This document shows positions 1 to 8,045 of a stretch of 8,045 nucleotides of DNA, in pieces. The notes beneath the pieces are model-generated. The model was not told the DNA's origin. It made no database searches and saw only the letters and a program-made list of their open reading frames with translations. A program made the translations under genes and the position numbers. Position 1 is the stretch's first letter; each line of letters opens with the position of its first letter. The DNA is taken from the IMG/VR virus record IMGVR_UViG_3300044548_000117; one strand, 5' to 3'. The DNA comes from a virus.

Positions 1-127
1 TGCTCCATTGCTAGATTACCGGCATTCGCATTCCTGATTTCAGGTATTGACAGGGATTTCGCCGGTGCTTGATCGAATCCACATGTTCATCCGCTTTCGC
101 CGGGAGCACGTCCAGATGATTGGCAAG
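1..127. repeat. Terminal direct repeat, copy 1 (identical to 7919..8045); marks a circular genome written with an overlap, or a head-to-tail junction
   Basis: Read base by base, TGCTCCATTGCTAGATTACCGGCATTCGC...CAGATGATTGGCAAG at 1-127 recurs at 7919-8045. The offset is 7918 bp. Confidence 0.97.
33..44. promoter_or_regulatory. Inverted repeat CCTGA-TT-TCAGG in the divergent repressor/pII control region; candidate operator
   Basis: The 5-bp arms are exact reverse complements. The repeat lies between the minus-strand XRE gene start and the pII start, next to a tandem GCATTC GCATTC (22-33) and a TTGACA hexamer (47-52). The same element recurs at 7951-7962. Function is inferred only. Confidence 0.3.
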
Positions 128-1453
128 GTCGACTCGCCGACTCTGGTCGTTGACCTGGAGTCGCTGGGTGTTCGCATGCGGTCTTCGGGTGGGCTGACCA
201 AGCGGGAGGAGGGTGGTTACGACGTCGAAGACCTGTCCCATGCCTGGGAGTCCTTGCCGTCGAGCTACACGCCCATGGCCTTCAAGGTGTTCCACCAGAG
301 TCTAGGCAAGCGCCTCGATCCTGGCGTTGAGCTGAAAGCCAGCCCGGCGAAGCTGCTCCAGGGGCACAACGTGTTCGGCCCAACCTCGATCCGGAAGGGC
401 GCCGAGGTGATGCTGAAGTGGCTGGCCGGCTCCTACCCGGACCTTTGGGCCAAGCTCGATGTTCTGTCGATCGAGGTGTACGCCTTGGACTGCACGTTCT
501 CGGCACGCATGCCGAACGAACAGACCGCGCTCCAGGTGATCCAGTTCATGCGTGGCGTCAGCAACGGCCAGACACGCAACCGCGGTGACGACTACGAAAC
601 CACCGCCTACTGGGGCGCCAAGGATGGTCGTCTCCGCAAGATCAAGGCGTACCTGAAGGGGCCGGAGTTCCAGCGTCAGCTGGAAGAGGTCAAGAAAGCC
701 GCTCGCGGCGCTTCGTCGAACCCGGAGCCCCGGGATGACCTGGACAACGCCCACGTCCGTGCCTGGAAGGTGCTCAAGCGTGAGGCCCGTTGCGCCATGT
801 CCCATCTGTCAGCCGCTCGGACTCTACGGGTCATGCAGGACCCACGGCTTCAGGAGTTCGCCAGGCTTCTTCTTCGCCTTGAGGCGACCGTCATGCACCG
901 CTGGCTGGAGCGTCGGAATCTGCCGACGAACCTGTGGGAGTTGTGTGACTACCAGGAGGCGCTCCGCGACCAGGAGCGCTGTTTCATCCAGGAATGTTGG
1001 AGCGCAGTGACTGGCGAATTGTTCGCGGCCTTTGAGGGTATGACCATGAAGCGAATTGACGATGAAAAAGTGCTGGCCGCACTGATCGAGAAGTACACGA
1101 AGGTAGGGAAGGGGAAGTGGACCAAGGCCCGGGCAGACAAGGCAACTGGGACCATCATTCCGCCGATGTTCGTGCCGGGTAAGGCGAGTGATGCCCAGGC
1201 CCGCAACCTGTTCCGCACGTACCGCAGCCTGAAGGACTACGGCTGGGAAGAGACCATGGCGTCGATGTCCCGTGCGTCGTTCTACCGACATGTTGCCGAC
1301 CTGGAGGCCGTGGGCATCTCCAAGGCCATGCTGCAGAACCTGAAGGACTACGACAACACGCGCAACGTGGTGCCGATCCTGCGGCTCCTGGAGGTCGATT
1401 TCAGCGCCCAGGTGCCCGACTGGTACGTCGAACCCAGCGTGGAGGCCGCGTGA
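47..1453 (+). CDS. gII: Replication initiation protein, Ff pII family (rolling-circle nickase)
   Basis: The 468-aa ORF has blocks colinear with Ff (M13/f1) pII as I recall it: SHAWESLPSSY, ELKASPAKLLQGHNVFGP, LDCTFSARMPNEQTALQVIQFMRGVSNGQT and the C-terminal NVVPILRLLEVDFSAQVPDWYVEP. The start is ambiguous. Options are TTG 47, in-frame GTG 65 (AGGGA at 52-56, 8 nt upstream, giving MLDRIHMFIRF, which lines up with the Ff pII N-terminus) and ATG 83. Confidence 0.92.
   Translation: MTGISPVLDRIHMFIRFRREHVQMIGKVDSPTLVVDLESLGVRMRSSGGLTKREEGGYDVEDLSHAWESLPSSYTPMAFKVFHQSLGKRLDPGVELKASPAKLLQGHNVFGPTSIRKGAEVMLKWLAGSYPDLWAKLDVLSIEVYALDCTFSARMPNEQTALQVIQFMRGVSNGQTRNRGDDYETTAYWGAKDGRLRKIKAYLKGPEFQRQLEEVKKAARGASSNPEPRDDLDNAHVRAWKVLKREARCAMSHLSAARTLRVMQDPRLQEFARLLLRLEATVMHRWLERRNLPTNLWELCDYQEALRDQERCFIQECWSAVTGELFAAFEGMTMKRIDDEKVLAALIEKYTKVGKGKWTKARADKATGTIIPPMFVPGKASDAQARNLFRTYRSLKDYGWEETMASMSRASFYRHVADLEAVGISKAMLQNLKDYDNTRNVVPILRLLEVDFSAQVPDWYVEPSVEAA
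1046..1453 (+). CDS. gX: Nested in-frame pX-like product (C-terminal 135 aa of pII)
   Basis: An internal ATG at 1046 (another at 1040) follows GAGGG at 1034-1038. The product starts MKRIDDEKVLAALIEKY, the position where Ff pX starts (MNIYDDSAVLDAIQSKH, from memory). This call is an analogy, not a demonstration. Confidence 0.5.
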   Translation: MKRIDDEKVLAALIEKYTKVGKGKWTKARADKATGTIIPPMFVPGKASDAQARNLFRTYRSLKDYGWEETMASMSRASFYRHVADLEAVGISKAMLQNLKDYDNTRNVVPILRLLEVDFSAQVPDWYVEPSVEAA

Positions 1454-1671: not shown

Positions 1672-1913
1672 TGAAAGCGCCCCTCCGTTTTGCATTCGGC
1701 TGGGTGGTGTACCTGGCCATTACGGCCGCTCTGACGCCGATTCTCAAGGCCCTGGTGGATGCCTTCCAACTCATGCCGATCTGGCTTGTGGTGGTGATCC
1801 TGGTTGCCTCCCTGGCCGCCTTCTTGGCCACGTTCTTCTTGCTCCTGCGCCGGTTCTGGTCCTGGTGCGATCAACCCCGAAAAGCTACCCGTGAGGTTCC
1901 CCCATGTTCGTGA
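1671..1913 (+). CDS. Small integral membrane protein (80 aa, two hydrophobic segments)
   Basis: The ATG overlaps the upstream stop (TGATG) and GGGGAGGG lies 6-7 nt upstream. The segments FAFGWVVYLAITAALTPIL and IWLVVVILVASLAAFLATFFLLL look like TM helices. Confidence 0.6.
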   Translation: MKAPLRFAFGWVVYLAITAALTPILKALVDAFQLMPIWLVVVILVASLAAFLATFFLLLRRFWSWCDQPRKATREVPPCS

Positions 1914-2239
1914 AAATCGGCCTGTGCAAAGGCACGTCTGTCAAAGAATCCCGCAACGGCTTCCAGGAACACTACGTCCTGGTCAGCGGCGAGAGTCAGG
2001 ACCAGTTCGGCCAGGTGGTCGAGGTGACTACTGGCATTCGCCTGTCCAAGGGGCAGCTCGACGCCGGCCTGCGCGATTACTACGACACGCTGAAGGGCAA
2101 GCAGGTGTGCGTGCCCTGCTACAACCGGCCGTGGAAGTCCGCTGGCGGCACTGTCGGCATGGACACGTGGCTGTCGAACGAGAACGGCGGCAAGCCGGTT
2201 CCCCTGGTCACCCAGCAGCAGCTGAAGGCTACGGGCTGA
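1904..2239 (+). CDS. Probable ssDNA-binding protein (gV analogue)
   Basis: GAGG lies 7 nt before the ATG. The ORF sits between the pII and coat genes, as gV does. It is a small soluble protein that looks beta-rich, and its N-terminus (KGTSVKESRNGFQEHYVLV) resembles inovirus gV/SSB N-termini. The assignment rests on position and loose resemblance only. Confidence 0.5.
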   Translation: MFVKIGLCKGTSVKESRNGFQEHYVLVSGESQDQFGQVVEVTTGIRLSKGQLDAGLRDYYDTLKGKQVCVPCYNRPWKSAGGTVGMDTWLSNENGGKPVPLVTQQQLKATG

Positions 2240-2248
2240 GTGTGACCG

Positions 2249-2461
2249 ATGAAGTACCTGGTCTGTGATGGTGATTGGCTGGTGGACGAGAGCGGGCTTG
2301 CCCGGTGCTCTGGCCAGCTGACTGCCATGACAGTGCAGGACGCGGGGAGCTTGGGCTCCCTGACGCCTGAGGAGCGCAAGGAGCTGCAGGATTACACCAT
2401 CGGTGTGTTCTTCGCGGTGTTCTGCGTCCTCGCTCTGAAGAAGCATCTGAGTACCAACTGA
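2249..2461 (+). CDS. Small protein (70 aa) with a C-terminal hydrophobic anchor; possible minor virion or membrane protein
   Basis: The ORF lies directly upstream of the major coat gene. The C-terminal YTIGVFFAVFCVLALKKHL is TM-like. The SD is weak. Confidence 0.5.
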   Translation: MKYLVCDGDWLVDESGLARCSGQLTAMTVQDAGSLGSLTPEERKELQDYTIGVFFAVFCVLALKKHLSTN

Positions 2462-2478
2462 CCTGGAGGGTCGCCAAC

Positions 2479-2706
2479 ATGAAATACATGAACGCTGTGA
2501 AGAAGTATGGCCGCAAGGCTCTGGTCTCCGGCGGCGCCATCGCCGCTGGTGTGGGCGGTCTGGCGATGCAGGCTTACGCCGAGCTGCCGGCATCCATGAC
2601 CACCGACGCCGCGTCGGCCAAGTCGGACAGCAACGAGCTGGGCTACCTGGTCCTGGGCGTGCTGTTCGGTATCGCGGCTCTGCGCTGGCTGCGCCGCGCG
2701 ATGTAA
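2479..2706 (+). CDS. gVIII: Major coat protein precursor (pVIII-like)
   Basis: GGAGGG lies 8 nt upstream. The 34-aa leader ends in AYA. The predicted 41-aa mature peptide has an acidic N-terminus (ELPASMTTDAASAKSDSNE), a hydrophobic core (LGYLVLGVLFGIAAL) and a basic C-terminus (RWLRRAM). This is the classic inovirus coat layout. Confidence 0.85.
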   Translation: MKYMNAVKKYGRKALVSGGAIAAGVGGLAMQAYAELPASMTTDAASAKSDSNELGYLVLGVLFGIAALRWLRRAM

Positions 2707-2712
2707 CAGGGG

Positions 2713-2736
2713 AGGAGGGGGCTTAGGCCCCCTCTT
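2713..2736 (+). terminator. Stable GC hairpin just after pVIII (possible partial terminator or attenuator)
   Basis: A 10-bp stem pairs 2713-2722 with 2727-2736 (AGGAGGGGGC / GCCCCCTCTT, one G-T pair) around the loop TTAG. The downstream T tract is poor. Confidence 0.4.
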
Positions 2737-2827
2737 ACTTCATGACCTACGAAATGTACTGGCTCGCGGTAAACGTGTTAGCGGCGTTGCTGATCTTGTT
2801 CGGTCGGTTATAGCGTCAGGTTGAATT

Positions 2828-2852
2828 AAAGGCCCCTGACGGGGCTTTTTTT
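2828..2852 (+). terminator. Rho-independent terminator between pVIII and pIII
   Basis: The sequence is AAAGGCCCC-TGAC-GGGGCTTTTTTT: a GC stem (2832-2836 / 2841-2845), a 4-nt loop and a run of 7 T. Ff phages also terminate after gene VIII. Confidence 0.8.
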
Positions 2853-2869
2853 ATTTTGAGAGGCTAGTT

Positions 2870-4147
2870 ATGCGGGCTATATTGATTTTGCTTTTATTTT
2901 TAATGCCCCCATTGTCCGCTTACTCGTCTGAGTACATTTGGACTACTACCAGCTGGTCTGGGAATACTTACTCCGGCCCTAGTCCCTTTTCTGCTTGCGC
3001 TCAGATTCCTTATGATAATCAGTTTGTCTTTGATCACTTGGATAGGATTTCTGACACACAGTTCCGATGTGTCGCTCTGCGGGTGTCTGATGGCGCAATT
3101 CACTCCGGCATGTCTGCGATTAGATCTGGTGATTCATGCCCTTCCGGTACTGTATTTAATGGCCTTACTGGTGTTTGTGATCCTCCAACTGATGGAGAGT
3201 GCCTGGCTAAAAGTTCATATACGAAAACCATTCAGTATTCATTTGCTGATGGTTCTGCTGTTTTTGGTCTCGGTGCAGATATTAAGGATGGTTGCATTTA
3301 TGAGCCCGGAGAGCCGAAGAACTGTACGGACACACAATGCGAAGTTGAAATGAAGCCGGTTGGTAATAACGTCATGTCGGATAACTCCGGCAACCCTGAC
3401 CAAGATCTTCAGGATTATCTGGACGAACTGGCAAAGCAGTTCAAGTGCGAGCATGTGGCCAATGGAACTGTTGGTTGTTCGGCTGCTGAGACTACGCCGC
3501 CGGATATCGATCCTGACGACAAGTGCCCGGATGGCTATTCCTGGTCAGGCACTGCTTGCTTCCCCACGAATGGCGGTGGGAACGAGAACCCCGATAACCC
3601 GACGCCTGGTGGTGATGGCGGCTCTTCTGGCGGCGGCAGTACCGGCGGCAGTGGCGGGGATGGCGGCAGTACCGGCGGCGATGGTAGCGGCGATGGCTCC
3701 AGCGGTGGCGGCGGAGGTGGTAACGACGGTGACGATGGTGACGACAAGGAACCTGGTGTTGAGGGTACGGCTTGTGACAAGGCGTTTAAGTGCACTGGCG
3801 ATGCCGTTAACTGCGCGATTGCTGAGCGCCAGAAGAATGCCTATTGCGAGAACAAGGAACTCCAGGATGCACAAAAAGGTTTCGACAAGATTGGCGAGGA
3901 AATAGGCCAGGAGAAGTACACGATGCTCGATGGCGGCGATGTAGATATTGGTTCGCTGTTTGGTGAAGGCACTCGGTTCTTGCCTTCGGCATGCCCGGCG
4001 ATTTCAACAACAACACTGCATGTAGGGCCTCTCCAGTTTAACTGGCAGCCGGTCTGTCAGTACGCCGAGCTGGTTGGAAAGTTCCTTGTCGCCTGGGCAT
4101 CCCTGTTCTTTGCAACGTATGTTGGTCGCGCCTTTGGAGGTGATTGA
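2870..4147 (+). CDS. gIII: Minor coat / adsorption protein (pIII-like)
   Basis: GAGAGG lies 6 nt upstream. The protein has a signal peptide (MRAILILLLFLMPPLSAYS), Cys-rich N-terminal domains and a long Gly/Ser/Asp linker (GGDGGSSGGGSTGGSGGDGGSTGGDGSGDGSSGGGGGGNDGDDGDD). A C-terminal hydrophobic anchor (FLVAWASLFFATYVG) completes the pIII architecture, and the gene sits after pVIII as gIII does. Confidence 0.85.
   Translation: MRAILILLLFLMPPLSAYSSEYIWTTTSWSGNTYSGPSPFSACAQIPYDNQFVFDHLDRISDTQFRCVALRVSDGAIHSGMSAIRSGDSCPSGTVFNGLTGVCDPPTDGECLAKSSYTKTIQYSFADGSAVFGLGADIKDGCIYEPGEPKNCTDTQCEVEMKPVGNNVMSDNSGNPDQDLQDYLDELAKQFKCEHVANGTVGCSAAETTPPDIDPDDKCPDGYSWSGTACFPTNGGGNENPDNPTPGGDGGSSGGGSTGGSGGDGGSTGGDGSGDGSSGGGGGGNDGDDGDDKEPGVEGTACDKAFKCTGDAVNCAIAERQKNAYCENKELQDAQKGFDKIGEEIGQEKYTMLDGGDVDIGSLFGEGTRFLPSACPAISTTTLHVGPLQFNWQPVCQYAELVGKFLVAWASLFFATYVGRAFGGD
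3632..3691 (+). repeat. Tandem 30-bp repeat inside the Gly-rich linker of pIII
   Basis: GGCGGCAGTACCGGCGGC occurs at 3632-3649 and again at 3662-3679. The two units encode GGSTGGSGGD and GGSTGGDGSG. Confidence 0.7.
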
Positions 4148-4149
4148 TT

Positions 4150-4455
4150 ATGTGGTTCTACTATGCGTTTTCGTTTTTGAGCTTCGTGCTTATTCCGCTG
4201 GTGAACATGGTGCTTCGCGCCTTGGGCATTGGCGTAATGAGCTATATCGGAATCAATCTGGCAATTAATGCCGCCAAGGATCACTTGATTGCAGCCCTTG
4301 GCGGAATGCCCATCCAAGTTCAGCAAATTCTTGGCCTGGCCAATGTTGATGTTGCGGTGAACATTGTTCTTTCCGCAGTGACCACCCGGTTCATCTTGAA
4401 CGGCGTTAACAAGCTCAGTGGTCGCAAGAAAAAGTATGGCGTCTTGGAGGCTTAA
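4150..4455 (+). CDS. gVI: Minor coat / membrane protein (pVI-like)
   Basis: GGAGGTG (4135-4141) lies 8 nt before ATG 4150; the ORF track starts at TTG 4144. The 101-aa product is hydrophobic and multi-TM, and sits between pIII and pI as in Ff. Confidence 0.75.
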   Translation: MWFYYAFSFLSFVLIPLVNMVLRALGIGVMSYIGINLAINAAKDHLIAALGGMPIQVQQILGLANVDVAVNIVLSAVTTRFILNGVNKLSGRKKKYGVLEA

Positions 4456-4458
4456 CGT

Positions 4459-5709
4459 ATGGGCTCGCCACTGAACTTGGTTACTGGTCTTCCTGGCAAT
4501 GGCAAGACGCTTAACACGATCAAGGAAGTAGATGCGCAGGCGGTTAAAGAAGGCCGGCTTGTGTACTTCCACAATATTCGCGGCCTTAAGCCCGAGCTGC
4601 TTAAGGCGGAATGGTACGAGTTCGAGGACCCGCATAAGTGGTTCGAACTGCCCGAGAACAGTCTGATCGTGGTGGATGAGGCCCAGGGCTTTTTCCCGCC
4701 CAGGGACATTCGCAAGCCGGTTCCCGAGTACTGCTCCAAGATGGAAACCGTGCGCCATGAGGGACGCGAGCTGTGGCTAATCACCCAGCACCCCAGCTTC
4801 ATTGACGTGCACGCTCGCCGGTTGACCAACCGGCACATCCATTTCAAGCGCATCTTCAAGTCGTCGCGGATTTTGCGGCACGAGTGGGAAGGGGTGTCCG
4901 ATGTCGACAAGGCCAGCTCGTTCAAGGCGGCCATGACGACGCCTATCAAGCTCGATAAGAAGTTCTTCGACGTCTACCAGTCCACGGCCCAGGGGGCTTC
5001 GCATTTCTTCAAATTCAAGGCGCCTCTGGCCCTCTATGCGCTGCTTCTCTGCCTGGGTGTGGTGGCCGTCTTCGGGTATCGGTTCTATCAGCGTTATCAG
5101 GAGAAGGTGGGCGCCCACGATGCGCCTACTGAGCAGCAGGCGCTGCCCTCGGGCGCTGCTGTGCTGGGATCGGTGGTGGATGCCGTGGCGCCGGAATCGG
5201 TGAAGGGCAAGGGCAAGCAGACGCTGCAGGAGTACCTGGCCGACCGGACGCCACGGATTGCGTCCGTGCCGTCGTCGGCGCCGATCTACGATGAGCTGAC
5301 CAAGCCCGTCAGCTTCCCGCGCACATACTGTGTCTCGACGACCAATGAAACGCTTCTGGAGCGCAACAGCGTGCGTAGCCGCATGAAGGTCGGTTGGCAC
5401 CATGGGAAGAAGACTGGGTGCGGGTGTTACACCCAGCAAGGCAGCCAGGTGCAGACGACTTTCGAGTACTGCATGAACGCGGTGGAGAATCGGTTCTTCG
5501 ATCCAACGCTGCCGGATCATGGCAGCCAGCAGGTGGCCTCGTTGCCACAGCCGCCAACCGCTGGCCTCGTCGCAAGCGGAAGCGACGTAGGAGCACCGCG
5601 CGACGTGTCCAGCGGCGCGCCGCTGGCTTCAGCGACCGATGGCGGTTTCGGCGGCACGCGCCTTACGATCGTGCCTGACAGCGAATACCCGTCGAGGCCG
5701 TGGAGGTGA
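4459..5709 (+). CDS. gI: Assembly ATPase pI / Zot-family protein
   Basis: GGAGG lies 8 nt upstream. The protein has a Walker A motif GLPGNGKT at aa 10-17, a Walker B-like LIVVDEAQ, one central TM segment (APLALYALLLCLGVVAVFGYRFY) and a Cys-containing C-terminal domain (GCGCYTQQG). This is the typical Zot/pI layout. Confidence 0.92.
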   Translation: MGSPLNLVTGLPGNGKTLNTIKEVDAQAVKEGRLVYFHNIRGLKPELLKAEWYEFEDPHKWFELPENSLIVVDEAQGFFPPRDIRKPVPEYCSKMETVRHEGRELWLITQHPSFIDVHARRLTNRHIHFKRIFKSSRILRHEWEGVSDVDKASSFKAAMTTPIKLDKKFFDVYQSTAQGASHFFKFKAPLALYALLLCLGVVAVFGYRFYQRYQEKVGAHDAPTEQQALPSGAAVLGSVVDAVAPESVKGKGKQTLQEYLADRTPRIASVPSSAPIYDELTKPVSFPRTYCVSTTNETLLERNSVRSRMKVGWHHGKKTGCGCYTQQGSQVQTTFEYCMNAVENRFFDPTLPDHGSQQVASLPQPPTAGLVASGSDVGAPRDVSSGAPLASATDGGFGGTRLTIVPDSEYPSRPWR

Positions 5710-5825
5710 TGATGGATGTGTGGATGGTGTTGACCGTGCTTCTGGTCGTTGTGGTGGGCACGGTGTTCGCCGGCTTGGCCGGCTTCGGCATGATGCAGGC
5801 GTGGGCGAGTCGTGGCGATGACTGA
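5709..5825 (+). CDS. Hydrophobic micro-ORF, 38 aa (MMDVWMVLTVLLVVVVGTVFAGLAGFGMMQAWASRGDD)
   Basis: This ORF is below the ORF-track size cutoff. Its ATG overlaps the pI stop (TGATGATG), with GGAGG at 5702-5706 (5 nt before the second ATG at 5712). It contains one clear TM-like segment. I translated it by hand. Confidence 0.4.
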   Translation: MMDVWMVLTVLLVVVVGTVFAGLAGFGMMQAWASRGDD

Positions 5826-5913
5826 CCTTACGTGGTGGCAGGCGGCTTTGGTTGTTGTTCCTGGAGTAATCCTGTTTGTGGTCGGCTTGGCTCGGGAGAT
5901 CCGTCACTGGTGA
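5818..5913 (+). CDS. Hydrophobic micro-ORF, 31 aa (MTDLTWWQAALVVVPGVILFVVGLAREIRHW)
   Basis: The start overlaps the end of the preceding micro-ORF (GATGACTGA). It has a single TM-like segment with flanking aromatic and basic residues and no strong SD of its own. I translated it by hand. Confidence 0.35.
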   Translation: MTDLTWWQAALVVVPGVILFVVGLAREIRHW

Positions 5914-5920
5914 ACCCTAG

Positions 5921-5948
5921 GCTTCGCATAATGTATATGGCGTTACGT
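5921..5948 (+). other. dif-like XerC/XerD recombination site 1 (candidate attP half)
   Basis: The site reads GCTTCGCATAA-TGTATA-TGGCGTTACGT. Against E. coli dif (GGTGCGCATAA-TGTATA-TTATGTTAAAT) the XerC arm matches 9/11, the central region 6/6 and the XerD arm 6/11. Confidence 0.7.
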
Positions 5949-5986
5949 TGAGCGGCGTGCGGAACATGGCCACGCCTCCGCGCGTC

Positions 5987-6014
5987 GCGTAACGTAATGC
6001 CCATTATGCGAACG
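5987..6014 (-). other. dif-like site 2, inverted relative to site 1
   Basis: The reverse complement reads CGTTCGCATAA-TGGGCA-TTACGTTACGC. Against dif the XerC arm matches 9/11, the central region 3/6 and the XerD arm 7/11. Site 2 shares TTCGCATAAT and CGTTACG exactly with site 1. Confidence 0.6.
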
Positions 6015-6242
6015 CCCGTGCCTCTCGAAATTCCGCCTCATCTGGTCGACCTGGCCACCTTGTATTCCCCATCCCGCGATCCTCTCGATGCCGTTTGTTA
6101 CGTCCTGCAGGCCTACCCGGAGCTGGTGGGCGATCTGCGCAAGCTGCGCCGCCGAGTCGCCCAACTGGACGAAGAGGGCGCGCTGCTGGACGAGCGCCTG
6201 GCGAAGCTCCAGGCAGCTTGCCGGGCGATACTCGATCTGTAG
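5997..6242 (+). CDS. Small DNA-binding-like protein: possible ribbon-helix-helix N-terminus plus C-terminal coiled coil (81 aa)
   Basis: VPLEIPPHLVDLA resembles an RHH beta-strand/helix start. The C-terminal LRKLRRRVAQLDEEGALLDERLAKLQAACRAILDL is heptad-like. There is no convincing SD. The stop TAG (6240-6242) abuts the first GCTAGC palindrome. The architecture parallels ORF 6454-6747. Confidence 0.45.
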   Translation: MPIMRTPVPLEIPPHLVDLATLYSPSRDPLDAVCYVLQAYPELVGDLRKLRRRVAQLDEEGALLDERLAKLQAACRAILDL

Positions 6243-6440
6243 TGCTAGCGTTTTTCGTTCTGCAGTTGCTGCACCAGGTCGAGATTTGCTAGCACCTGGC
6301 GGATCTGCCTGAAGGCGCCCTGCTAGCATTTCGCGTCCTCGATCGGCGCCGGCGCCGATGAAATTGCTAGCAATCGTCTCGATGGGAGTGCTAGCATTTT
6401 TGCACCTGGTGGATCTCGTCCAGGATCAAATTTGCTAGCA
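6242..6440. repeat. Array of six perfect GCTAGC palindromes (core of TGCTAGCA) in the 211-bp gap between the two RHH-like ORFs
   Basis: The cores lie at 6244-6249, 6288-6293, 6322-6327, 6366-6371, 6390-6395 and 6434-6439, spaced 44, 34, 44, 24 and 44 bp apart. Site 4 is a 12-bp perfect palindrome, ATTGCTAGCAAT (6363-6374). Site 6 abuts the SD of the downstream ORF. Confidence 0.9.
6342..6359. repeat. 18-bp perfect palindrome ATCGGCGCCGGCGCCGAT
   Basis: The sequence equals its own reverse complement. It lies between GCTAGC sites 3 and 4. Confidence 0.9.
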
Positions 6441-6453
6441 GGGAGAAAGTGGA

Positions 6454-6747
6454 ATGCTGCTGACCATTCGCGATGTGCCCGAAGACCTGGTGCGCCAGGC
6501 AAAGATTGCGACCGGCAAAGGTACTGGGAGCCAGGCGTTTATCGCCGGCATTGAGCTGATGCTGTGGCAGCGTGATCGCATCGACGAGATGCAGGAAGAG
6601 ATTCGCTCGCTGCGCGAGACCGTTGGTGTCTACCAGGGCGTGCTTGCCGATGCTCATTCGGCCGCTGTTCAGCTCGCCGAGATCGCCGGGCAGAAGGACC
6701 TTTTCCAGTCTGAGAACCCGCTGCGCCCCGGGTATCGTCGCCGCTAG
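6454..6747 (+). CDS. Ribbon-helix-helix-like DNA-binding protein with a C-terminal coiled coil (97 aa)
   Basis: GGGAG lies 8 nt upstream. MLLTIRDVPEDLVRQAKIATGKGTGSQAFIAGIELML fits the RHH pattern of beta-strand, helix A, G-x-S/T turn and helix B. It is followed by the heptad-like RIDEMQEEIRSLRETVGVYQGVL. The stop TAG (6745-6747) lies inside GCTAGC site 7. Confidence 0.7.
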   Translation: MLLTIRDVPEDLVRQAKIATGKGTGSQAFIAGIELMLWQRDRIDEMQEEIRSLRETVGVYQGVLADAHSAAVQLAEIAGQKDLFQSENPLRPGYRRR

Positions 6748-6838
6748 CAGTTTTCGCGCACCAGCTGCTGCACCGCGGCTGATTTTGCTAGCACTTTTGC
6801 CTGCAGGTTTCGTCCTGGATCCGACTGACTGCTAGCAA
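6741..6838. repeat. Array of three further GCTAGC palindromes downstream of the second RHH-like ORF
   Basis: The cores lie at 6743-6748, 6787-6792 and 6831-6836, spaced 44 and 44 bp apart. The first unit is homologous to the unit after ORF 5997-6242: both carry TTTTCG..TGCTGCACC..GATTTGCTAGCAC. Confidence 0.9.
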
Positions 6839-6841
6839 CTC

Positions 6842-7087
6842 GGAAGCCCCTTCGCGGGGCTCCGTCGTTCCCGGCGCTCCGAGCACACCTCGCGCCTGAT
6901 CACCCCAATTGCGCGTACAGCGGCCTTCCAGGGGCCTCTGTACGTGCGCGCACGTTGTGCTCGCAGACTTCCGAGGAATGTTCAGCCGTCTAGCCCAGCT
7001 GGTGGAGAGCGCGAAGCATTGGCCCTGCGGGCCAACGGGTAGCCGGAAGGCGCAGGGCGGAGCCCTGGCGGAAGGAACGAATGTTCC
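6842..7087 (+). other. Hairpin-dense GC-rich non-coding segment; candidate packaging signal and/or minus-strand origin, or a structured RNA
   Basis: I found five stem-loops by hand: 6842-6863; 6911-6947 (10-bp outer stem plus inner GGCC/GGCC); 7019-7035 (TTGGCCC-TGC-GGGCCAA); 7053-7067 (CAGGGC-GGA-GCCCTG, flanked by direct CGGAAGG repeats); and 7074-7087 (GGAAC-GAAT-GTTCC). There is no credible ORF. The functional assignment is by analogy with the Ff intergenic region. Confidence 0.4.
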
Positions 7088-7135
7088 TGGAGGGTAAGGC
7101 CGGCTTGCAGCGGGGCGGGGGTAGGCCGGAGGCCG

Positions 7136-7157
7136 CAGGGGTTCACCCCTGGTTTTT
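7136..7157 (+). terminator. Rho-independent terminator (plus strand)
   Basis: The sequence is CAGGGG-TTCA-CCCCTG followed by GTTTTT. On the minus strand no T tract follows the hairpin. Confidence 0.7.
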
Positions 7158-7415
7158 AGATGCCTCCGGCGCTGCCTTGGGTATGACTCCACGGCAGTAG
7201 ACCAGGTAGTTCTTGTCCGTCTTCCTAGTCGCTTTTTCTGCGGCCGCCATGGCTTTTCCTGCGGTGGTGCACGCCTCTTTCGTGGGGTAGGGGGTGTGCA
7301 CCGTAATTACAGTGGTAGGCGTCGGGTTGCTCTGGAGCAGGATTGTCAGGATGTATTCGAGGGTCACTGCCGCTCCATGGCTTTTTGGGGCTGCGCGGAG
7401 TGTCCGATAGCGCAC
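7143..7415 (-). CDS. Hypothetical small protein (90 aa from GTG 7415; 74 aa from GTG 7367)
   Basis: This is the only sizeable ORF in the interval. The internal GTG at 7367 has GGAG 5 nt upstream. I recognise no motif, and the C-terminus reads through the plus-strand terminator hairpin, so the call is weak. Confidence 0.3.
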   Translation of the reverse strand: MRYRTLRAAPKSHGAAVTLEYILTILLQSNPTPTTVITVHTPYPTKEACTTAGKAMAAAEKATRKTDKNYLVYCRGVIPKAAPEASKNQG

Positions 7416-7430
7416 TCCCGGCGGCAGCCG

Positions 7431-7473
7431 GGTCCACCATCTCTAATGGTGGACTCTTGTCTCATGGTGAGAA
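7431..7473 (+). promoter_or_regulatory. Plus-strand (rolling-circle) origin with an Ff-like nick-site hairpin
   Basis: GTCCACCAT-CTCTA-ATGGTGGAC forms a 9-bp stem (7432-7440 / 7446-7454). TCTCTAATGGTGGACTCTTGT matches the f1 origin TCTTTAATAGTGGACTCTTGT at 19/21, and GTGGACTCTTGT (7449-7460) is identical. A second inverted repeat, TCTCA-TGG-TGAGA (7460-7472), sits where the Ff pII-binding inverted repeat lies. By analogy the nick falls between T7444 and A7445. Confidence 0.8.
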
Positions 7474-7491
7474 TTTCCGATCATTTTTTGA

Positions 7492-7926
7492 TCAGCGCAG
7501 CGCTTCCTGCTCGTAGCCGTACAGAACGCCTTTTAGGGCGATTCGTGCTTGGTTTCTGATCTCGGCGGGCAGCGCATCAAACCTCTTGAGTATGGGTCTC
7601 AAGTCCTCGGATACGGTCATTTCTTCGCTGTCCAGCAGCAGCTCGTCGGTGGTTACGCCGAGCACCTTTGCCATGGCGACGACCTTGTCAGCCGATGGCA
7701 TTGCCGTGCCAGCTTCGTAGGTGCTGTAGGTTGATTTGCCGATGCCAGCAGGGCCCCAGACTTCAGGCATCGTGAGGCCTCGGCCCTTTCTGATCCGCTT
7801 TAGGTTCTCGCCAAGCGTCATAGCTCTCTCATGCGCGGTCTTCATGGTGGCGAGATCGTAGGTACTGTTCACGCATACAGCTCCAGCATTCTGGCATTTG
7901 ATTGCTTGCATGTTGTAATGCTCCAT
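7492..7926 (-). CDS. XRE/Cro-CI family helix-turn-helix transcriptional repressor (phage immunity-type regulator)
   Basis: LGENLKRIRKGRGLTMPEVWGPAGIGKSTYSTYEAGTAMPSADKVVAMAKVLGVTTDELL is a typical XRE HTH domain. The gene is transcribed divergently from pII. The start is uncertain: ATG at 7926, 7911, 7845 or 7821, where 7821 gives MTLGENLKR, a typical HTH N-terminus. The ORF runs into the terminal repeat. Confidence 0.85.
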   Translation of the reverse strand: MEHYNMQAIKCQNAGAVCVNSTYDLATMKTAHERAMTLGENLKRIRKGRGLTMPEVWGPAGIGKSTYSTYEAGTAMPSADKVVAMAKVLGVTTDELLLDSEEMTVSEDLRPILKRFDALPAEIRNQARIALKGVLYGYEQEALR

Positions 7927-8045
7927 TGCTAGATTACCGGCATTCGCATTCCTGATTTCAGGTATTGACAGGGATTTCGCCGGTGCTTGATCGAATCCAC
8001 ATGTTCATCCGCTTTCGCCGGGAGCACGTCCAGATGATTGGCAAG
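7919..8045. repeat. Terminal direct repeat, copy 2 (identical to 1..127)
   Basis: See copy 1. It contains the repressor start region and the 5' end of pII. Confidence 0.97.

Follow-up and report, generated by a model that had tools for sequence, protein, structure and literature searches.

Introduction

The locus described here raises the question of why a small filamentous phage should surround a single short gene with nine copies of the same palindrome. The DNA concerned is virus record IMGVR_UViG_3300044548_000117 of IMG/VR (8,045 nucleotides; this whole stretch is called the window below), and the gene is the second of two small neighboring open reading frames (ORFs), here termed ORF1 and ORF2. 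We have found that ORF2 and the palindrome arrays on both of its sides form a compact block, the ORF2 cassette, that occurs in several kinds of replicon and whose sites change together with the protein. In the reading that we favor, to which we attach a probability of roughly one half, ORF2 is a ribbon-helix-helix (RHH)/coiled-coil protein that would act on pairs of sites 44 bp apart, repress its own synthesis and build a maintenance complex that is centromere-like or that organizes the replicative form (RF) of the phage, and it would not be a regulator of other phage genes.

Filamentous phages of Pseudomonas influence both virulence and the biology of biofilms, and how their RF is kept or organized within the cell is barely understood. 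What is new here is the delimitation of a compact and transferable protein-plus-sites cassette, the protein of which belongs to a family that has no function in Pfam, NCBIfam or PHROG. Its two-sided geometry, with sites paired at 44 bp and arranged at 44/24/44 bp upstream of the gene, is unusual, and the protein has a conserved terminal peptide. The natural specificity variants (TGCTAGCA, TGGTACCA, TGATAGCA, TGATTGCA and TGCTAACA) track two residues of the reading strand and would give orthogonal repressor/operator pairs for Pseudomonas synthetic biology. Several questions become testable as a result, namely whether RHH/coiled-coil proteins can serve as molecular rulers, whether phages maintain replicons without a nucleoside triphosphatase (NTPase), and what the C-terminal peptide recruits.

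Paired palindromes flank ORF2

The hexamer GCTAGC occurs nine times in the window, always inside positions 6244-6836, where shuffled sequences lead one to expect 2.2 copies and none of 200 shuffles reaches nine. Successive copies are spaced 44, 34, 44, 24, 44, 309, 44 and 44 bp apart. Six of the nine are part of the complete palindrome TGCTAGCA, and the remaining three differ from it at one flanking base. The initial annotation, a reading of the letters by a model, had described two ORFs of 81 and 97 amino acids that each end at a GCTAGC, and this description holds at 5997-6242 and 6454-6747: the ORF1 stop codon (TAG, 6240-6242) abuts TGCTAGCG at 6243-6250, and the ORF2 stop codon (TAG, 6745-6747) lies inside the GCTAGC at 6743-6748. 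Judged by their sequences both ORFs are real coding genes, because each matches a PHROG of unassigned function (phrog_13909 at 2e-35 for ORF1 and phrog_8031 at 1.2e-33 for ORF2), each has many relatives in a large protein collection (96 and 70, respectively, mostly on contigs of ~7 kb), and differences among these relatives rank codon position 3 above 1 above 2 (pairwise differences at positions 1/2/3 of 0.36/0.23/0.60 for ORF1 and 0.22/0.16/0.47 for ORF2).

The arrangement of the sites was followed through ~55 loci with ORF2 relatives that were gathered from phage records, viral contigs, metagenomes and genomes. Sites in the window form 52-bp units, each a pair 44 bp apart, that we designate U1 to U3 upstream and D1 and D2 downstream of ORF2, with the four core upstream positions lettered A to D (Table 1). 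Four upstream GCTAGC at 44/24/44 bp are present in 36 of 43 distinct flanks, the last of them ending directly before the Shine-Dalgarno sequence, and three downstream sites at 44/44 bp in 36 of 46 distinct flanks, the first lying on or next to the stop codon. The U1 pair is an extra one that is limited to the window and four relatives (L041, L022, L044 and, in degenerate form, L034). Nothing else in the system is as rigid as the 44-bp spacing inside pairs.

The units are also related by descent. As the initial annotation had noticed, the unit behind ORF1 (6244-6295) resembles the unit behind ORF2 (6743-6794); they are 73% identical without gaps, and when the GCTAGC ends are removed the alignment of the 38-nt interiors still beats 5000 of 5000 shuffles. 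The same interior alignment relates 6390-6439 (U3) to 6787-6836 (D2). The downstream run duplicates upstream units, with D1 corresponding to the U1 and U2 type and D2 to U3. The two homologous arrays enclose the gene as closely as they can. One interior motif, GCACCTGGT (6402-6410, just 3' of site C), is almost invariant among the relatives, including those whose 8-mer has changed, and it could be the region of the transcription start or the site of a second protein. The non-palindromic site variants show no consistent orientation pattern within pairs, so that orientation offers no evidence on the symmetry of a complex. A literature search with the bare 8-mer returned matches to cloning primers only, and Rfam and tRNA scans of the region came back empty.

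The sites change with the ORF2 protein

The strongest argument that ORF2 binds these sites is that the 8-mer changes along with residues of the N-terminal strand of the protein. We scored covariation between residues 4 and 6 of ORF2 and the 8-mer over 57 distinct loci. A protein with T4 and R6 is paired with TGCTAGCA in 40 loci, with TGATAGCA in four and with TGATTGCA in two. Proteins with K4 are paired with TGGTACCA, a GGTACC-type site, and those with M4 and R6 are paired with TGCTAACA, a site that is found in two further phages. Distant relatives (30-47% identity) retain the positions and spacing of the sites while the 8-mer itself has changed. For example, all seven GGTACC of locus L040, which has TGGTACCA, lie inside the two flanks of the gene, and plasmid pBS1142 carries TGATTGCA at -141, -97, -74, -31, +268, +360 and +404. 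Sites of the TGATAGCA form occur in loci L003 and L059, and TGATAGCA/TGCTATCA sites in phage silverpheasant213 and plasmid pL21634-2. Residues 4 and 6 both fall in the extended N-terminal segment LLTIRDV of the ORF2 model. ORF2 thus very probably binds the 8-bp palindromes through an RHH-like head, which agrees with the proposal of the initial annotation that the palindromes are the sites of a small protein with such a head and a coiled-coil tail. Sites for a host factor or a restriction enzyme were rejected as incompatible with this covariation and with the existence of non-palindromic variants.

A transferable cassette of gene and sites

Comparison with a close relative, locus L062, delimits the block. 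This relative lacks exactly positions 6243-6895 of the window: its positions 228-504 match window 5922-6199 at 82% identity and its positions 562-1316 match window 6896-7659 at 91% identity, which leaves only ~15 nt from the ORF1 stop codon to the rejoined sequence. Because the arrays go with ORF2 and L062 lacks precisely this stretch, we take the unit of inheritance to be a 653-bp cassette made up of arrays, ORF2, further arrays and a closing hairpin. This replaces the view of the initial annotation, an ORF and a following unit that occur twice, with that of one gene flanked on both sides by arrays.

ORF2 cassettes are found without ORF1 in three types of element. Inoviruses that resemble P. 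aeruginosa phage 36-2 have the arrays and ORF2 without ORF1. The cassette of vB_Pae_U10, a 10-kb integrase/primase element that was deposited as a phage, likewise lacks ORF1 and consists of one upstream pair, ORF2 and three downstream sites directly after the primase gene. Pseudomonas plasmids carry ORF2 relatives of 30-47% identity beside rep, kfrA and ssb genes. An ORF2-class gene accompanies ORF1 in only 13 of 80 viral loci of the ORF1 family, whereas in 62 ORF1 stands alone and is followed by no arrays. Since the arrays accompany ORF2 into elements without ORF1, and since 62 of 80 ORF1 loci are devoid of both, we assign the sites to ORF2 rather than to both ORFs, contrary to the earlier suggestion that the two proteins serve the array jointly. 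Movement between replicons and a diversifying specificity, in a block that combines cis-acting sites with a trans-acting factor, are the hallmark of partition and incompatibility determinants, or else of immunity systems.

The possibility that the arrays are targets of the XRE-type repressor of the phage was rejected, as L062 keeps the repressor region (91% identity) without the arrays and the inspected vB_Pae_U10 and plasmid loci have no counterpart of the repressor.

Two further observations concern the surroundings of the cassette. In plasmid loci L058 (pPP1-3, 2276-3274), L060 and L061 the ORF2 relatives are located in the replication/maintenance region, where they adjoin a gene for a KfrA-family coiled-coil DNA-binding protein, rep, ssb and toxin-antitoxin genes; the site layout is retained there and the 8-mers are different. 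At the right border of the cassette stands the motif CTGATCACCC (6896-6906; CTGATTACCC in relatives), which recurs after ORF1 or ORF2 in the otherwise dissimilar loci L062, L097 and L040 and, as ATGATTACCC, in L066. This motif may be an origin or nick-site element.

Predicted fold of ORF2

Structure was predicted with AlphaFold2 for monomers of both proteins. The ORF2 model has an extended segment (residues 1-9), a helix (10-20), the loop GKGTGS and a second, long helix (25-84), with a confidence score (pLDDT) of 85. It thereby presents the RHH topology, in which a strand is followed by two helices and helix 2 is preceded by a G-x-[ST]-type turn. Residues T4, R6, T20, T24, S26, Q27 and A28 are invariant among close relatives, and A67, A71, L74 and E76 are nearly so in the alanine-rich C-terminal part of the long helix.

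Searches for recognizable homologs gave little beyond coiled coils. The sole recurrent match of another kind is Pfam FitA-like_RHH, which is reached below threshold by 9 of 66 ORF2 family members (best E 9.4e-5) and by the window protein at an E value of 0.17, also below threshold. Foldseek lists RHH proteins such as FitA and MazE-mt1 (NikR in the case of ORF1) among weak matches with E > 3, and it returned nothing at E < 0.4 for either monomer against PDB or for ORF2 against BFVD. Sequence and profile searches of PDB found coiled coils only, and neither protein has a family in Pfam, NCBIfam or PADLOC, the PHROG matches being to families of unassigned function. The fold is instead assigned from the predicted topology and from the covariation of strand residues 4 and 6 with the site: ORF2 very probably consists of an RHH-like head and a helix of ~60 residues, in which the second RHH helix is prolonged into a coiled coil. 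Of the initial suggestion that both proteins have an RHH-like N-terminus and a heptad-rich tail, the topology has thus been recovered in both models, whereas a significant structural or Pfam match has not. The ORF2 homolog of phage 36-2 is annotated as a "DNA-binding protein 7NUV-like", a label that our searches did not reproduce; 7NUV is the tetramerization domain of Aux2, an RHH protein of pLS20 and an analog of TraM (PMC8829557).

A proposed maintenance complex and its alternatives

We propose that each 44-bp pair would be spanned by an ORF2 oligomer that carries two heads for DNA, probably two RHH dimers held together by their long helices, and that would measure off a palindrome pair in the manner of a ruler. 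A distance of 44 bp corresponds to about four helical turns or ~150 Å, and a 60-residue helix measures ~90 Å, so two RHH dimers joined via the C-terminal parts of their helices could place their heads ~150 Å apart. The upstream complex would cover the ORF2 promoter and leader and so lead to autorepression. Site C reads TGCTAGCAT in essentially every relative and fits an extended -10 element (TGnTAnnnT), for which it is a tentative candidate, and site D sits between this candidate and the ribosome-binding site, where it abuts the Shine-Dalgarno sequence. Because of these two positions, occupation of the C-D pair should shut off ORF2, and we infer that the gene is autorepressed. The upstream and downstream arrays would in addition assemble into a larger nucleoprotein complex around the gene, and any communication between them would go through a flexible loop since the distance between the arrays varies and their phase is not conserved. 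Since the phage is devoid of further sites, direct control of its other genes by ORF2 is excluded. The cassette would therefore be best understood as a self-contained cis/trans device of extrachromosomal replicons.

A number of points weigh against this maintenance reading. The distance from the upstream to the downstream array ranges from 238 to 324 bp among relatives and helical phase is not kept. Foldseek, PDB profile searches and Pfam yield no significant match of ORF2 to RHH proteins, and a scan of 5800-8045 finds no consensus sigma-70 promoter (-35/-10). The 7.9-kb genome encodes no partition NTPase, its only NTPase being the Zot/pI assembly protein, and the inspected loci of plasmids and vB_Pae_U10 likewise have none within 4 kb. 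Moreover, filamentous phages usually keep their RF in many copies and this one has a dif-like attP through which it could integrate, so that a centromere may not be needed. Finally, a cooperative switch could make equal use of the seven to nine sites that surround the gene.

This last point leads to a purely regulatory explanation, which we regard as somewhat unlikely and which survives best among the alternatives. Both this and the maintenance reading correspond to options that the initial annotation had offered. According to this explanation, ORF2 is a cooperative and autoregulated repressor without a role in segregation, the upstream sites form a multi-operator switch on its own promoter, and the downstream sites are a roadblock, an insulator or looping partners that halt or tune read-through of the long + strand operon, from rep through zot to ORF1 and ORF2, into the origin/repressor region. 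Such a role would suit sites that lie on the stop codon of ORF2, in its leader and on its probable promoter, and repressors and antitoxins make up the RHH families nearest to it in sequence. From rep to ORF2 all genes point the same way, and a good terminator follows only at 7136-7157; a terminator-like hairpin also exists inside the D1 unit of the window (6762-6781), but its T-run is not conserved and most relatives have AAAA instead. The plasmid and integrase/primase-element contexts furthermore lack the operon layout of the phage, and it is not obvious what selective value the block would have if its targets flank its own gene only, yet it has been kept in three kinds of replicon.

A conserved C-terminal peptide

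The broad ORF2 family comprises 165 clusters at 50% identity, with a typical length of 85 amino acids, and shares the C-terminal motif [GSA]-Q-x-D-[LMI]-[FL]. Of 135 family representatives, 91 have this motif in its strict form, where 0.007 per protein would be expected by chance, usually 0-3 residues from the C-terminus and with acidic residues following. The position after the glutamine, position 2, is usually Gly, or else Ser, Lys or another small or polar residue, rather than an aliphatic one. Sliding-clamp-binding peptides follow the pattern Q-phi-x-[L/M]-[F/L], for example QADMF in Pol III alpha (PMC11139829). The ORF2 motif fits four of these five positions and is similar to QADMF, and we treat its resemblance to the beta sliding-clamp-binding motif as a lead.

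This lead would be accommodated if the arrays and ORF2 were a replication accessory beside an origin, either recruiting and retaining the beta clamp or controlling copy number by handcuffing sister arrays. The prevalence of the motif and its fit to the clamp pattern speak for such a function, as does the location of the cassette just after the primase gene in vB_Pae_U10, near rep and kfrA in the plasmids and beside the hairpin-rich region 6896-7490 in the phage. However, the mostly Gly, small or polar residues at position 2 are of a kind that weakens clamp binding in known peptides, in the AlphaFold2 model the long helix ends with the motif, which may simply cap a helix bundle, and L062 replicates without the cassette; we consider an accessory function improbable. 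A bolder form of the maintenance reading would join the two ideas in an NTPase-free module, wherein a ruler-like RHH/coiled-coil oligomer clamps the 44-bp pairs on either side of its gene and uses the Q-x-D-[LM]-[FL] peptide to tether the replicon (phage RF, integrase/primase element or plasmid) to the host beta sliding clamp, at the replisome or on clamp-rich DNA, coupling its inheritance or replication to replication of the host. This combination is a long shot.

ORF1 and the adjoining attP-like hairpin

ORF1 stands next to the cassette and resembles ORF2 in outline. Its conserved start is the ATG at 6006 (Met4 of the listed frame, which is invariant), and in both predicted structures the N-terminus is extended and leads via a 10-residue helix and a loop to a helix of 52-60 residues (pLDDT 85-88). 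The initial annotation had viewed the two as a duplicated module. A recent gene duplication has been dropped, as BLASTP produces no alignment of ORF1 with ORF2, whereas a deep one is plausible: hhalign of the ORF1 family against the broad ORF2 family gives a probability of 93.6% over 71 columns (52.6% with a narrow ORF2 alignment), and in most relatives the ORF1 stop codon is directly followed by a D1-type unit. ORF1 is thus a probable distant paralog, with the reservation that coiled-coil composition may inflate the score. ORF1 proteins themselves match the ORF2 profile.

What ORF1 appears tied to is a different element. Two inverted dif-like sites (TTCGCATAATG... and ...CATTATGCGAA) at 5920-6016 would fold in single-stranded DNA (ssDNA) into a forked hairpin with a ΔG of -37.6 kcal/mol and a z score of -7.1, and the conserved Met codon of ORF1 lies inside the right arm of this hairpin in every ORF1-family locus inspected. 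In the 36-2-like phages the dif-like hairpin directly precedes the ORF2 arrays. CTXphi uses such an inverted dif-like arrangement for XerCD-mediated integration, and by analogy 5920-6016 looks like an attP of the CTXphi type for XerCD integration of the + strand. On these comparisons we place ORF1 next to the cassette and outside it, linked to the attP-like hairpin instead.

A duplicated pair acting together on the array, whether as hetero-oligomers or with ORF1 as a headless modulator of ORF2 or one of altered specificity, is very unlikely. The shared predicted topology and length, the hhalign score and the fact that the ORF1 stop codon abuts the first site in most loci with both genes speak for such a pair. 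But neither the T/R strand residues nor the G-T-G-S turn nor the C-terminal motif is found in ORF1, the profile similarity may owe something to coiled-coil composition, ORF1 is locked to the attP-like hairpin, and each gene is found without the other, in 62 of 80 ORF1 loci and in the three element types mentioned above.

Folding of the units was considered as well. In ssDNA, U2 and U3 fold with z scores of -4.2 and -5.1 relative to shuffles and D1 with one of +0.4; folding as such is trivial, since the palindromes at the two ends are complementary to one another. Interior symmetry of the 52-bp units is significant for U3 only (11/18), marginal for U1 and absent from the other three. A full palindrome or ssDNA hairpin as a general property of the units was rejected given these mixed results. 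The low z scores of U2 and U3, and the classical nature of GCTAGC and GGTACC as restriction palindromes, notwithstanding, it is highly improbable that the units are ssDNA elements (a packaging signal or minus-strand origin hairpins) or restriction, host-factor or chance features, readings that are largely refuted by sites which change with the protein and include non-palindromic forms (TGATAGCA, TGATTGCA, TGCTAACA) and by cassettes in a 10-kb integrase/primase element and in plasmids, or that ORF2 is an orphan RHH antitoxin, there being no toxin-like ORF adjacent to either gene, in line with the initial annotation, no toxin family match before or after them and no match to PADLOC or toxin-antitoxin families.

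Comparison with known systems

The ORF2 cassette resembles RHH centromere binders, RHH-tetramerization proteins and coiled-coil stability determinants and is a member of none of these groups. Type Ib/II centromere binders (ParG/parH of TP228, ParR/parC of R1 and pSK41, and omega of pSM19035) repress themselves, and their specificity diversifies between replicons. They are small proteins with RHH heads, as ORF2 probably is, and have arrays of many short repeats at or around their own promoter (covered in part by PMC3130281). They differ in that they work via an operon-encoded ParA- or ParM-type NTPase, of which there is none at ORF2, and in that their repeats are contiguous with a periodicity of 4-11 bp, whereas the ORF2 sites are 44-bp pairs on both sides of the gene. 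ORF2 has no detectable sequence or fold match to any of them.

A similar periodicity is that of F sopC, which consists of 43-bp repeats that each contain one short inverted repeat, the binding site of a single SopB dimer, with the intervening DNA adding no affinity (PMC2910045). The spacing is nearly the 44 bp seen here, a likeness that counts in favor of the centromere-like reading, and the interiors of the ORF2-cassette units are conserved by descent. SopB is a large helix-turn-helix protein of the ParB family that operates with the SopA ATPase, and sopC has 12 tandem copies on one side of its operon only.

In predicted architecture, an RHH-type head on a helical stalk, ORF2 is comparable to TraM of F-like plasmids and Aux2 of pLS20. 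Proteins of this type have an RHH N-terminus and long helices that form a tetramer with two DNA-binding heads, and they act on several separated sites (PMC8829557). Their stalk is a helical hairpin, unlike the one continuous helix of ORF2; neither sequence nor fold searches match ORF2 to 7NUV or TraM chains, and the locus has no relaxase nearby and no oriT/relaxase context.

Phage RHH repressors provide another comparison. Mnt and Arc of P22 act at short palindromic operators that overlap promoters, and Mnt tetramerizes via a C-terminal coiled coil. Mnt has a single 17-bp operator, however, with no arrays, 44-bp pairing, downstream sites or Q-x-D-L-F peptide. Three single-protein stability determinants, pSK1 Par, R388 StbA and IncP KfrA, combine a DNA-binding head with a coiled coil or are small DNA binders, and they act on repeats beside their own gene without a dedicated NTPase. 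A KfrA gene adjoins the ORF2 homolog on plasmid pPP1-3. These proteins are nonetheless distinguished from ORF2 by helix-turn-helix or winged-helix heads, a different repeat geometry and a lack of homology.

Among filamentous phages, Pseudomonas phage PMBT54 has a small omega-like RHH gene, ORF13, at the end of its genome, and its authors suggest a function in episome maintenance (PMC10534721). That gene was found through similarity to omega, which ORF2 does not have, and no arrays or experiments were described for it. The statement of the initial annotation that filamentous phages offer no precedent is therefore nearly right, the exceptions being this speculation (PMC10534721) and the unsupported annotation of phage 36-2.

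Genome setting

The window represents a circular filamentous-phage genome of 7918 bp with a terminal overlap of 127 bp (positions 1-127 are the same as 7919-8045), so that the intergenic region between repressor and rep is split over both ends of the window. Every morphogenesis gene is on the + strand (Table 1). The nearest deposited phage, Pseudomonas phage NEU2023, has only the rep gene in common with it, at 84.5% identity.

Table 1. Coordinates of the ORF2 cassette, its parts and the other genes in the window
Feature	Position	Strand	Description
Whole ORF2 cassette	6243-6895	+	653 bp; upstream arrays, gene, downstream arrays and trailing hairpin region
Unit U1	6243-6294		Sites 1 and 2: TGCTAGCG at 6243-6250 and TGCTAGCA at 6287-6294, 44 bp apart
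Unit U2	6321-6372		Site 3 (core position A, -132 relative to the ORF2 start) and site 4 (core position B, -88)
Unit U3	6389-6440		Site 5 (core position C, -64 relative to the ORF2 start) and site 6 (core position D, -20)
Shine-Dalgarno-like GGGAGA	6441-6446	+	Immediately 3' of site D; kept in relatives
ORF2	6454-6747	+	97 amino acids; predicted strand LLTIRDV (nt 6457-6477), helix 10-20, GKGTGS loop, long helix 25-84
Q80-K-D-L-F84 codons (QKDLF)	6691-6705	+	Family-wide motif [GSA]-Q-x-D-[LMI]-[FL]
Unit D1	6742-6793		Sites 7 and 8: CGCTAGCA at 6742-6749 (includes the ORF2 stop codon) and TGCTAGCA at 6786-6793
Unit D2	6786-6837		Sites 8 and 9: TGCTAGCA at 6786-6793 and 6830-6837; site 8 common to D1
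G+C-rich hairpin GGAAGCCCC-TTCGC-GGGGCTCC	6842-6864	+	Closes the cassette; kept in the closest relatives
ORF1	6006-6242	+	78 amino acids counted from the conserved Met (81 in the listed ORF, with its start at 5997)
G2P-type replication protein	47-1453	+	
Single-strand DNA-binding protein	1904-2239	+	
Coat protein	2479-2706	+	
pIII-like protein	2870-4147	+	
pVI-like protein	4144-4455	+	
Zot/pI assembly protein	4459-5709	+	
XRE-type repressor	7492-7926	-	

The block of pIII and pVI genes (2707-4455) has a G+C content of 52% as compared with 61-62% in the remaining genome, which suggests a recently exchanged adsorption or host-range module. The region 6896-7490 that adjoins the cassette is non-coding and rich in hairpins. 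It contains a G+C-rich direct repeat of 31 nt (7027-7057 and 7110-7140, 71% identical), and 3' of this repeat the sole good intrinsic-terminator-like hairpin of the region on the + strand (CAGGGGTTCACCCCTG followed by GTTTTT, 7136-7157). This non-coding stretch, with its repeat and terminator at 7027-7157, may hold the replication origins or a packaging signal. Additionally, a 59-bp stretch at 7418-7476 is 91.5% identical to phage blackswan219-1, a genome that otherwise has no megablast-level match to this one, and within it the hairpin CCACCATCTCTAATGGTGG is situated just upstream of the end of the repressor gene.

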